Part shown: piece after piece, positions 1-2,454 of the stretch
Position numbering within the stretch: the first letter of the stretch is position 1
Layout: each line of letters starts with the position of its first letter
Source of the DNA: a virus
IMG/VR virus record: IMGVR_UViG_3300032116_000122
Span: 1 to 64,000 of that record
DNA: 64,000 nt
Reading direction: 5' to 3' (one strand)
Made by a program: the position numbers and the translations under genes
Notes under the pieces: model-generated
Told to the model about the DNA's origin: nothing
The model's input: the letters and a program-made list of their open reading frames with translations, nothing else
The model's database searches: none

Positions 1-306
1 TGGTGCTTTCGCGCTGGTTGTCTTGATGTGCTACATCACGTCACATTACGATTTGGCCAGCACTACACGACAGTAACAGTGTTAGGATTACCTACCATAT
101 TGTAGGCCTGTTACTACGCTTGCCGTGATACTGCCCACGGCTGCAACCTGTGTAATATAGAAACGGGAAGCCATTACACGTGCTTTGGTTTATGAACCAC
201 TACCCTATGGGATACACCCAACACGTTTCTATTGCGTGCCTGCACACTTATGGTCCTGCAGAACCATGCACTTAGTGCCTAGGTCGGCTGTACATCACCG
301 CCCAGA
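1..306 (-). ncRNA. Large, densely structured non-coding RNA (GOLLD-like candidate), truncated by the window edge
   Basis: Paired segments: 11-17/57-63, 72-79/108-115, 122-127/136-141, 150-156/173-179, 250-256/261-267, plus a 9-bp pseudoknot 157-165/224-232. C-A mismatches on + become G-U pairs on -. No ORF over most of the span; lies downstream of a tRNA. Confidence 0.55.
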
Positions 307-308
307 TC

Positions 309-524
309 TCAGCCCTTGAAGTTGCGACGAATCGCTTCCGGATCACCGATCCAGAAGAAGCCGGTGCCACAACTCTTGGCAAGCCACTCGTCAAGGAGTT
401 TATGATAGAACTCCTTGTCGACCAGCGGGCTGGACTCTTTCTCCAGCTCACCACATTCGTGACACACGTCACTGTGCACAGGACCCTTGCGGGTCATGTA
501 CTCTATCTCACCACAAAAGCGCAT
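309..524 (-). CDS. Small hypothetical protein with CxxC
   Basis: 71 aa; purine-rich RBS (AGAAAGGGGG) upstream; CHEC motif. Confidence 0.6.
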   Translation of the reverse strand: MRFCGEIEYMTRKGPVHSDVCHECGELEKESSPLVDKEFYHKLLDEWLAKSCGTGFFWIGDPEAIRRNFKG

Positions 525-550
525 TTTGCGCCCCCTTTCTGTTAGTGGAG

Positions 551-623
551 TGGGGCGTGTAGGGATCGAACCTACGACCGAGGAATTATGAGTTCCCTGC
601 TCTAACCACTGAGCTAACGCCCC
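551..623 (-). tRNA. tRNA with CAU anticodon (probably Ile2, otherwise elongator Met)
   Basis: GGGGCGT-TAGCTCAGTGGTTAGAGC-A-GGGAA-CTCATAA-TTCCT-CGGTC-GTAGG-TTCGATC-CCTAC-ACGCCCC-A; canonical cloverleaf, paired 1:72 so not initiator, no encoded CCA. Confidence 0.95.
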
Positions 624-625
624 AA

Positions 626-766
626 GTGAGCATTTTTACGACATACTCAGGTCGGCGTGGTGCATAACGGATGCGGCTTATCCACGACTACCGCACCGGC
701 CCTCCGCATAATATTACCCGCAGAGGGGTGGGTTGAGCAGTATTGTTATGCCTTGCTCAGAGGCAT
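626..766 (-). ncRNA. Tandem H-type pseudoknots directly upstream of the tRNA
   Basis: ATGCCT-C-TGAGCA-AGGCAT-AACAATAC-TGCTCA (766-734) and CGAC-C-TGAGTA-T-GTCG-TAAAAA-TGCTCA (654-627) share architecture; hairpin and a third possible pseudoknot lie between them. Confidence 0.55.
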
Positions 767-834
767 CTGATTGACGGGTGGCAAGCCCCAGTTAGTCCCG
801 ACAGAAGGGGGAAGTCCTGTCTCGTGCCTTTTGA

Positions 835-1083
835 TCAGATCTTGTTGAGGCAAAGCCGAGGCTTCGCCACGTACTGACCGATTCCGATGTTTGCACCCCT
901 GTAGATGCACTGGAGGCGCTCAGCCACGGGCTGGTTCTCGGGCGTGACACGTGGCCCACTCGCTTGGGTCAGCCAAGTCAAAGCGGTCAGGGCGTCTGCC
1001 CTGAGCCTGAGCCACTCACCATGGCTTGAGGGGTTTTCCCCCTCCAAGAGGAGCGCCAACTCCTCAATTTCCTTGATGTTCAT
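835..1083 (-). CDS. Hypothetical protein
   Basis: ATG 1083 preceded by AGGAAGGG; 82 aa; GC-rich codons. Confidence 0.6.
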   Translation of the reverse strand: MNIKEIEELALLLEGENPSSHGEWLRLRADALTALTWLTQASGPRVTPENQPVAERLQCIYRGANIGIGQYVAKPRLCLNKI

Positions 1084-1157
1084 TATTTTTTGCCCTTCCT
1101 GATAATGCTCCACTCAATCATGGTGGAGTCAATGGTTGATACAGTCAATAAGATCTT

Positions 1158-1336
1158 GCCAGTGCATGGATCAGCCAGTCTCGCAAGGGGGTAAGACGGC
1201 GATCAACACACACTGGCTTATGCTATGTATACGCCTATGTGCTAATAGCAACTACAAACGGGGGGTGAGTAGTGCTAAAGCAGACGTTGCACTCAGATAA
1301 CGTTGTACAACGAAAGCATAGGCCCATACATAGGCA
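1158..1336. other. Structured intergenic segment (long stem-loop plus multibranch)
   Basis: GCCAGTG 1158-1164/CACTGGC 1211-1217 with nested pairs; TATGTAT 1224-1230/ATACATA 1326-1332; GCCTATG 1233-1239/CATAGGC 1317-1323. Confidence 0.35.
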
Positions 1337-1341
1337 CAAGT

Positions 1342-1416
1342 TGTGACATTTGTCACATGGTAGTGACAATTGCCACACGGTGAGACATTTGTCACATGGC
1401 TATGACAATTGTCACA
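1342..1416. promoter_or_regulatory. Four tandem 16-bp palindromic boxes matching the CRP/GlxR consensus TGTGA-N6-TCACA
   Basis: tgtgacatttgtcaca (1342), agtgacaattgccaca (1362), tgagacatttgtcaca (1381), tatgacaattgtcaca (1401); period 20/19/20. Confidence 0.7.
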
Positions 1417-1500
1417 CTAGGCACCTCGTACTGGACGGCGCGCCGTTTGCGACGCTATCCGGTCCAGCCAGACGCAGGGAGCAGAGATGCTCCACACACT

Positions 1501-1531
1501 ACGGTCGTGGCAGAAACACGGTCGTGGCAGA
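1501..1531. repeat. 14-bp direct repeat, two copies
   Basis: acggtcgtggcaga at 1501 and 1518. Confidence 0.8.
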
Positions 1532-1541
1532 GGCAAAGAAA

Positions 1542-1569
1542 TAATGCCCCCCATTTCTGGGGGGCATTA
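1542..1569 (-). terminator. Intrinsic terminator of 1582-2172
   Basis: 12-bp stem taatgcccccca/tggggggcatta followed by TTTCTTT on the - strand. Confidence 0.8.
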
Positions 1570-1581
1570 CTCCTCATCAGG

Positions 1582-2172
1582 TCAGGCGTTGACGCCCAAC
1601 TTGGCGGAGGCGAGATTGCTCATCGCCACGAGACGCTCAAGGAACTTGCGTCCCTCAGGAGTCAGGGTGTCGAGAGCACACACCTTGGCGGCATGGTCGA
1701 ACCACGTCTGAGACACCTTGTCCATCTGGACTTGGTACTGCTCATTGGTCAGTTCATCCTTGCTCTTGGTCTCCTTGCCAATCCGCTGAAGCAACGTGTA
1801 AGCGTTCTTCTGCGTCTTGGCAGTTGCCAATGCCAGTTCCACTTGGTCCACTTCCTTCTCCATCAGGAGTTGGAACGCACCGTAGTAGTTGGTGAATGGC
1901 TGAGAACCGGCGAGCGACGACACGGTGTTCGGGAGCGACGCGAACCGTCCGAATGCGACGATGAGTCGCCCGAATCCGTTCGGAGCCTTGCCGATGGTTT
2001 CCGTCCACGCCTTGGCGACTTCCGAGGTTTCGACCTTCTCCGGAGAGAGTTGAGCGATCTCGTTCGCCACCTTGGCGAGGTCCGCGAAGAATGTCTCCGC
2101 AGCCGCGCGAGCGGTCTGGAACGCACCGTGTCGGCGGATACCCTCCGCCAACCTGCTGATTAGTGTGGACAT
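1582..2172 (-). CDS. Hypothetical, probably helical protein (possible early gene)
   Basis: ATG 2172 with AGGAAGG RBS; strong GC3 bias; own terminator. Confidence 0.75.
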   Translation of the reverse strand: MSTLISRLAEGIRRHGAFQTARAAAETFFADLAKVANEIAQLSPEKVETSEVAKAWTETIGKAPNGFGRLIVAFGRFASLPNTVSSLAGSQPFTNYYGAFQLLMEKEVDQVELALATAKTQKNAYTLLQRIGKETKSKDELTNEQYQVQMDKVSQTWFDHAAKVCALDTLTPEGRKFLERLVAMSNLASAKLGVNA

Positions 2173-2454
2173 GAGTTGCCATACCTTCCTGCCCGTAGGC
2201 ATTATTCGGCTCGGGAATGAGCCTAAGTGGGGGCACGACCAAGCACTTGCGTGCTACGCGACTTGCGTCGCTAGGTGCGTGTTCCCTACCTACCACCATT
2301 ATGACGACGCCCACGATGCCTCCCCCGTAGGGCCCAGCCCCCAATGAGCACCCAACTACGCAATAGCCCTATTCTGCAACTTAACCGGTTACAACGTAAA
2401 GCCGCCCAACCGACAAGTGAGCTATAATAGACCTATTCTATTAGGAGGTAAACC

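Follow-up and report, generated by a model that had tools for sequence, protein, structure and literature searches.

To our knowledge, phage or bacterial RNAs longer than 500 nucleotides (nt) with conserved intricate folds are very rare; beyond rRNA and group II introns they are essentially OLE, GOLLD, ROOL and HEARO. GOLLD and ROOL have recently been shown to form RNA-only cages of unknown purpose, the GOLLD cage being a 14-mer. Both belong to phages and prophages, lie near tRNA islands and possess extensive structure, including kissing loops, with no known partner (bioRxiv 10.1101/2024.12.08.627333; PMC5737381; PMC12990946). ROOL averages 581 nt (PMC5737381), GOLLD env-38 is located downstream of a tRNA-Met (bioRxiv 10.1101/2024.12.08.627333), and GOLLD is present in Mycolicibacterium (PMC12990946). 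The RNA motif list of IMG/VR contains more than 8,000 motifs, all of 29-151 nt (PMC10690425). Here we describe RNA-A, a non-coding element that begins within the first 309 bases of IMG/VR virus record IMGVR_UViG_3300032116_000122 and whose 3' part lies beyond the end of that record; bases 1-64,000 of the record, the whole stretch of DNA that was analysed, are referred to below as the window. We consider it likely that the minus strand of window 1-309 encodes the first three-fifths, counted from the 5' end, of a stand-alone structured RNA of ~520 nt, and that this RNA represents a new family that belongs with GOLLD and ROOL in kind without being a member of either. A preliminary description of positions 1-306 had left two options, GOLLD or an unnamed giant RNA; the second is the one borne out, by covariation, strand asymmetry, contigs from RNA libraries and the recovered 3' part.

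Complete locus and conserved fold of RNA-A

The window is the start of a linear phage fragment of 75,482 base pairs (bp), ~83% complete according to CheckV, so position 1 is a contig end. Because the first 400 and the last 5,000 bases of the contig have no 14-mer in common in either orientation, closure of a circle cannot supply the missing part of the RNA. It was recovered from the metagenome contig Ga0315900_10051524 (hereafter L008), which was found with a pattern derived from the invariant hairpin H7 and scanned over the JGI metagenomes; this one scan with the H7 probe returned three contigs, L008 and two of the L004 type introduced below. Bases 2042-4336 of L008 correspond to window 1-2295 at 100% identity, and L008 reaches 2,041 bases past position 1. 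The expectation that the RNA continues beyond position 1 proved correct: a further 225 nt (L008:1817-2041) extend to a tRNA-Arg gene. RNA-A as a whole is a non-coding element of 533 nt between the stop codon of the open reading frame (ORF) ORF71 and tRNA-Arg(UCU) (L008 1817-2349, equivalent to window -224 to 308). Its part inside the window, RNA nt 3-311, occupies positions 1-309 of the minus strand (RNA nt n = window 312-n), and window 1-306 contains no ORF of at least 45 amino acids (aa).

On the 3' side, tRNA-Arg(UCU) (L008:1743-1816, minus strand, outside the window) directly adjoins RNA-A. On the 5' side lie ORF71 (window 309-524, minus strand; 71 codons, with CxxC motifs), whose stop codon overlaps the first bases of conserved RNA-A, and tRNA-Met(CAU) (550-623, minus strand). 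The earlier placement of the RNA behind a tRNA holds in that tRNA-Met is upstream on the same strand, but ORF71 separates the two, and the tRNA that touches RNA-A is tRNA-Arg.

Does this element possess a conserved fold, or could its helices have arisen by chance? Two diverged variants were available for comparison, both in related phage contigs: L004:7195-7800 (IMGVR_UViG_3300021093_000062, reached through a neighbouring 281-aa protein), in which the copy of window 7-316 is 76% identical, and L030:1174-1712 (IMGVR_UViG_3300047551_001325), the most diverged variant, which was found by searching whole records of phages sharing the sheath protein. Among the three variants, 27 of 99 modelled pairs have changed on both sides and are still paired; covariation among homologues, on which the preliminary description had made its case depend, is thus present. 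For the 5' domain, a covariance model (R1; 187 positions, 48 pairs) was built from the window type and L004; it scores window 121-302 at 225 bits and L030 at 140 bits. With L030 added to the alignment, 98.6% of the cells of the 48 pairs are paired and 10 pairs have changed on both sides. None of 500 shuffles was as good, and with the partners slid by 1-3 columns the pairing was 25-47% and 0-2 pairs were changed on both sides. A further 17 both-sided changes, out of 51 pairs, come from the kissing loop and seven more helices, set out by coordinates for each variant; of their 152 cells, 6 are unpaired, most of these at helix ends.

The resulting model comprises ~17 helices, a 7-bp kissing loop between the loops of two hairpins, and hairpin tips that vary in length; all window coordinates that follow refer to the minus strand. 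Every helix listed in the preliminary description (H9, H8 with H8b, H7, H6 and H2 in our naming) is real and lies on that strand, displaced by at most one base. At the 5' end, the CGGUG strand of P1 (296-300) has its proposed partner, CACCG, at L008:1824-1828, 7 nt before tRNA-Arg. Both strands are invariant in all three variants amid diverged surroundings, and P1 probably brings the ends of RNA-A together as a 5-bp terminal helix; since neither strand varies, there is no covariation and we can only infer the pairing. P2 (289-294 with 241-246, region 241-294) encloses two hairpins with both-sided pair changes, H1 (268-278; 2 of 5 pairs) and H2 (250-256 with 261-267; 4 of 7 pairs), the latter with an invariant UGCA loop. 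These are followed by H3 (235-239 with 221-225; 2 of 5 pairs changed on both sides), H4 (217-220 with 208-211; one change from U-A to U-G) and H5 (186-199, UGGUU/AACCA), whose stem is invariant and hence not informative on covariation. A helix of three pairs (181-183 with 143-145, region 143-183) encloses H6 (174-179 with 150-155), with a loop of 18 nt and both-sided changes in 2 of 6 pairs. H7 (135-141 with 122-128) has 7 bp and the loop GCAGUA; apart from one change of G-C to G-U, its stem is invariant except for one gap cell in L030, where it is one pair shorter.

The kissing loop connects the AUAGAAA strand in the H3 loop (226-232) with the UUUCUAU strand in the H6 loop (157-163). A 9-bp pairing of 157-165 with 224-232 had been proposed here; seven of these base pairs are free to form, the other two belong to the H3 stem, and the loop pairing as a whole covaries. 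In two variants AAUAGAAA pairs with UUUCUAU, and in L030 the strands have become CAAGGGA and UUCCUUG, with two pairs changed on both sides and one changed to G-U.

The remaining in-window helices lie in two domains. In the first (67-119), H8a (117-119 with 67-69) leads into H8 (108-115 with 72-79; 3 pairs changed on both sides) and the tip hairpin H8b (102-107 with 90-95), previously noted as an inner cctac/gtagg hairpin, which is replaced by unrelated hairpins in the variants and is 21 nt longer in L004. In the second (11-63), H9 (57-63 with 11-17) and its inner hairpin H9b (42-46 with 26-30) each show one both-sided pair change between the window and L004; in L030 the domain is rebuilt, the equivalent helix is weak and no convincing counterpart was found. 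Replacement of hairpin tips by unrelated hairpins is thus seen at H8b, and a 40-nt insertion hairpin in the 3' domain of L004 is another instance. Palindromic hexamers occur at equivalent places in all three variants, namely AGAUCU at the 5' edge, UGUACA in the 5' strand of P2, and CUGCAG, formed by the H2 loop and its closing pair; they could mediate self-association of RNA-A.

A number of pairs that are G-U on the minus strand would read C-A on the plus strand, in agreement with the earlier remark that mismatches resolve as G-U on the minus strand only. Folding energy points the same way. For window 1-306 alone the comparison with shuffled sequence is modest (minus strand z = -1.84, plus strand z = -1.60), and energy alone could not have settled the question of structure; the complete 536-nt sequence stands clear of its shuffles on the minus strand (z = -2.86, 0 of 100 shuffles as good; plus strand z = -1.04). 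An energy no better than shuffled, named beforehand as a sign against the RNA, is therefore not what the complete locus gives. The G-U pairs and the energy asymmetry together establish the minus strand as the sense of RNA-A. The single-sequence minimum free energy fold of the whole RNA-A, when tried on the other variant, had many of its long-range pairs broken, and our claims are consequently limited to local helices and a few covarying long-range ones.

These data bear on the reading of the locus as a DNA-level element (a replication origin, packaging site or recombination hotspot) or as a set of helices formed by chance. Three assemblies break nearby, and the in-window part has z of about -1.8, similar on both strands, as such a reading would allow; it is nevertheless hardly credible in view of the 27 both-sided pair changes, the G-U pairs confined to one strand, the strand asymmetry of the energy, and the finding, presented below, that the element is in RNA libraries from which the flanking DNA is absent.

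RNA-A in freshwater RNA libraries

Fifteen runs recorded as RNA hold part of L008:1700-2700, and all holders together come from 10 studies. Contigs from four freshwater metatranscriptome runs, belonging to four studies, were placed on L008:1400-3000. In each run one contig lies wholly within the element (L008 1855-2308, 1834-2220, 1944-2308 and 1895-2339); all four are inside the gap 1817-2352 and jointly span RNA nt 14-519. ORF71, the genes past tRNA-Arg and the far flanks had no cover in these runs; the lack of RNA-contig cover on ORF71, the tRNAs and the element past tRNA-Arg says nothing firm about those features themselves. Cover limited to the structured element is what is expected of a stable processed RNA, unlike carry-over of DNA. 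One RNA contig (X9) differs from the window type at 7 positions; the pairs that are touched stay paired, and the rest of the differences fall in segments modelled as unpaired. Two of the changes, at L008 2295/2296, are adjacent and linked and turn U-A and U-G of H2 into U-G and U-A, and one H11 pair changes from G-U to G-C. Compensatory pairs, strand-specific G-U pairs and presence in RNA libraries, the general marks of a structured non-coding RNA, are thus all found in RNA-A.

Could RNA-A be an untranslated region of an mRNA, serving ORF71 as a 3' untranslated region or stabiliser, or downstream genes as a leader or attenuator? It is embedded in a series of same-strand genes, and the ORF71 stop codon overlaps its first bases. 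However, RNA-A is kept in L004, where the upstream ORF is missing, and in L030, where the ORF is unrelated; RNA contigs lie on the element and none on ORF71, and what follows is a tRNA and no coding gene. We regard this explanation as very improbable.

The main rival holds that RNA-A is a cis-acting leader that controls, delays or protects the maturation of tRNA-Arg(UCU), with no free-standing RNA acting in trans. RNA-A adjoins the tRNA without a spacer and its terminal helix ends 7 nt before it, in related phages the very same position ahead of this tRNA is occupied by another structured RNA, of 420-480 nt, and "inhibited storage" has been put forward as an idea for the tRNAs that lie within GOLLD (PMC12990946). 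Set against this, ~500 nt with a kissing loop far exceeds any known tRNA leader, and the RNA contigs end before the tRNA, as a separate species would, although tRNAs assemble poorly anyway. On balance we think a leader of this kind unlikely.

For a stand-alone RNA, the following course can be proposed. RNA-A would be transcribed leftward in a unit that also carries tRNA-Met and tRNA-Arg and would be cut out of this longer tRNA-containing transcript. As it adjoins the 5' end of tRNA-Arg on the same strand, RNase P probably defines its 3' end, which a cut at the tRNA 5' end would place 7 nt past the terminal helix. The compact fold would let RNA-A persist while neighbouring mRNA decays, and by analogy with what is supposed for GOLLD and ROOL it may serve during infection as a trans-acting structural RNA. 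Our guess, offered with low confidence, is that it is a scaffold or container with a link to tRNA or translation.

Distribution of RNA-A and its neighbouring elements

The phage is a myovirus, as its contig carries terminase, portal, sheath and baseplate genes. Because the nearest cultured-phage matches of the tail sheath are Streptomyces and Gordonia phages (~35% identity), this uncultured freshwater phage may have an actinobacterial host.

The non-coding gap measures 533 nt in the window type, ~605 nt in L004 and ~530 nt in L030, and indels of 1, 2, 5 and 21 nt separate the variants. Identity among them is 74-84% in the 5' domain vs 37-60% in the rest of RNA-A. The order of a variable upstream context, RNA-A and tRNA-Arg is common to all three. 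Conservation starts at AGAUCU (window 304-309, minus strand; located by the three-variant alignment and a palindrome scan) in three unrelated upstream contexts and continues into tRNA-Arg. In the window type and L030 a small ORF and tRNA-Met precede RNA-A, the two ORFs being unrelated. L004 is without any block equivalent to window 317-1092, and a region conserved at 90% (window 1093-1501) directly adjoins its RNA-A.

How widespread is RNA-A? Among 19 related phage records, model R1 matched one, L030. Exact-pattern scans of viral contigs led to the L004 contig only with a 20-mer and to the L004 and L030 contigs with an 18-mer; two patterns had no match in 185,579 species genomes. A blastn search with window 1-900 against 50,697 cultured phage records matched the tRNA and nothing else. 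A search with a 133-aa protein encoded downstream led solely to a contig that starts short of RNA-A. Two relatives with 72% sheath identity (G002 and G003) keep the slot, with tRNA-Met, two ORFs, 420-480 nt of non-coding DNA and tRNA-Arg; the filler is unrelated to RNA-A and is itself structured-looking, with 5 compensatory pairs between the two. Since such relatives hold unrelated sequence in the slot, RNA-A appears, as far as the collections searched show, to be restricted to one freshwater phage lineage. That related phages fill this slot with another structured RNA suggests that phage tRNA islands offer a general niche in which large RNAs are interchangeable.

The alternative slot RNA before tRNA-Arg(UCU) was located at L037:1069-1547 (minus strand) and L038:4232-4653 (plus strand), in phages at 72% sheath identity. 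This region is conserved, with a nearly invariant core and a covarying hairpin just before the tRNA, and showed neither an Rfam match nor similarity to RNA-A.

Several observations count against a stand-alone RNA of a new family and need to be weighed. The comparison covers three distinct sequences and one near-identical RNA contig, all from one lineage (sheath 93-96% identical), and the covariation counts are no formal test. The structure was derived from the same sequences, the helices of the 3' half were aligned by hand, and P1 and several long-range pairs never vary and are hence unproven. Assembled contigs show neither strand, ends nor abundance. A scan of the minus strand for sigma-70 promoters and terminators recognised nothing, near-complete relatives at 72% sheath identity are without RNA-A (model R1, E<=10), and both processing by RNase P and any function in trans are what we infer.

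The surroundings of RNA-A have features of their own. Read leftward, the unit consists of a small ORF, a second structured RNA, tRNA-Met, a small ORF, RNA-A, tRNA-Arg(UCU) and a third structured element. The second RNA is a discrete one at window 648-830, between an ORF at 835-1083 (minus strand) and tRNA-Met. Whole metatranscriptome contigs from two studies lie on it (X1, 183 nt, depth 27; X2, 165 nt); it is missing from L004, and its body is missing from L030. The third element, of ~125 nt, follows directly after tRNA-Arg on the minus strand, outside the window (L008:1600-1742), and is also present at L004:6990-7120 and L030:985-1099; comparison of the three variants shows both-sided changes at 3 pairs of its closing 12-bp helix, and at L008:1600-1742 no RNA contig of the four runs covers it. 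ORF71 had no match in Pfam or PHROG, and neither it nor a 206-aa neighbour had relatives among the viral contigs searched.

L004 and the window type differ by an insertion or deletion of the block at window 317-1092, which comprises ORF71, tRNA-Met, the second RNA and the ORF at 835-1083; one junction is inside the last codons of ORF71. Beyond it, the non-coding region 1093-1501 carries four TGTGA-N6-TCACA-like boxes at 1342-1416; its identity in L003, L004 and L006 is ~90%, against just 55% for the neighbouring 281-aa protein. This region may hold the promoter or operator that serves the leftward unit; on the minus strand the sigma-70 scan gave no match. Three independent assemblies are broken within ~2.5 kb of the RNA-A locus, at window 1, at position 1 of L003 (~window 1228) and at position 1 of L009 (~L008 1161), and strain-level variation of the cassette confusing assemblers is a possible cause.

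RNA-A compared with GOLLD, ROOL and tRNA leaders

Rfam 15 scans at the gathering score and at E<=10 or E<=1, covering the window, L004, L008, L030 and the slots of the distant relatives, returned tRNAs and chance matches only, so that the comparison with GOLLD, ROOL, tmRNA, RNase P and group I and II introns proposed in the preliminary description ended with no family matched. Within the element, tmRNA, RNase P RNA and group I and II introns gave no Rfam match at E<=10, and ARAGORN called tRNAs alone, with no tmRNA and no extra tRNA that would indicate a tRNA-like array.

GOLLD had no match at its gathering score (150 bits) in the window, none at E<=10 in window 1-1500, L004 6500-8400 and L008 1-2900, and none at E<=1 in L030, L037 and L038. 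ROOL had no match in any scan of the window, L004, L008, L030, L037 and L038. Both models (RF02032, 416 positions; RF03087, 574 positions, gathering score 99.1 bits) were also searched directly, with permissive filters, against four whole records. For RF02032, 27 first-look candidates were scored and none matched at E<=10; RF03087 had no match at E<=10, but no control genome matched it either, so that the power of this ROOL search is unproven. The GOLLD option accordingly finds no support: RF02032 has no match at E<=10 in the window, the complete locus or the homologues, and ~520 nt is well below a typical GOLLD.

RNA-A might still be a highly diverged GOLLD or ROOL, homologous and out of reach of the Rfam models. 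It occupies the same niche, a phage locus flanked by tRNAs, recalling env-38 downstream of tRNA-Met (bioRxiv 10.1101/2024.12.08.627333); GOLLD is known in Mycolicibacterium (PMC12990946), and ~520 nt is near the 581-nt average of ROOL (PMC5737381). Yet the complete loci of three variants gave not even a partial match at E<=10 with permissive filters, and RNA-A is much shorter than GOLLD, which makes such homology improbable.

We therefore return to the likely reading, a new family beside the two. Like GOLLD, RNA-A is phage-encoded, ornate, tRNA-adjacent and known from lake metagenomes, with one part conserved and another variable, and it shares the genomic setting of that family, a phage or prophage with a tRNA neighbourhood (here a myovirus, with tRNA-Met upstream and tRNA-Arg adjoining). 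It departs from GOLLD in size (~520 nt, whereas GOLLD often exceeds 800 nt) and in the place of conservation, as GOLLD has a conserved 3' region and a variable 5' one, whereas in RNA-A the 5' domain is the conserved part; the combination of more than 800 nt, seen in many GOLLD members, with a conserved 3' region is thus not found in RNA-A.

ROOL is likewise a large elaborate RNA of phages and prophages, often near tRNA genes, with pseudoknots or kissing loops (PMC5737381; bioRxiv 10.1101/2024.12.08.627333). RNA-A is comparable to it in size (~520 nt against an average of 581 nt), in its phage and tRNA context and in having one kissing loop, a likeness that covers these general features. It differs in that ROOL comes from rumen samples and Firmicutes, whereas RNA-A comes from a freshwater actinophage-like myovirus in which the ROOL covariance model detects no similarity at E<=10. 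With the leaders and spacers of tRNA precursors that are cut by RNase P, RNA-A has in common that it adjoins a tRNA 5' end on the same strand; in contrast, it is at least 10 times longer, has a covarying conserved architecture of its own and is found as a separate molecule in RNA libraries.

What is new in RNA-A is that a large ornate tRNA-linked phage RNA matches no described Rfam family. Possible, although doubtful, is a bolder version: that RNA-A adds to GOLLD and ROOL a third class of giant ornate phage RNA, unrelated to them and the first from freshwater actinophage-like myoviruses, and that it might form an RNA-only multimer or hold or shield the tRNAs transcribed with it. The swap of structured RNAs in the same slot of related phages is a natural comparative experiment. 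An RNA unrelated in sequence, with the genomic habit of GOLLD and ROOL and present in lake RNA of several studies, provides an independent case for the role of such RNAs and raises two questions about all three: is there a functional link to tRNAs, and is self-assembly a general property of this kind of RNA?
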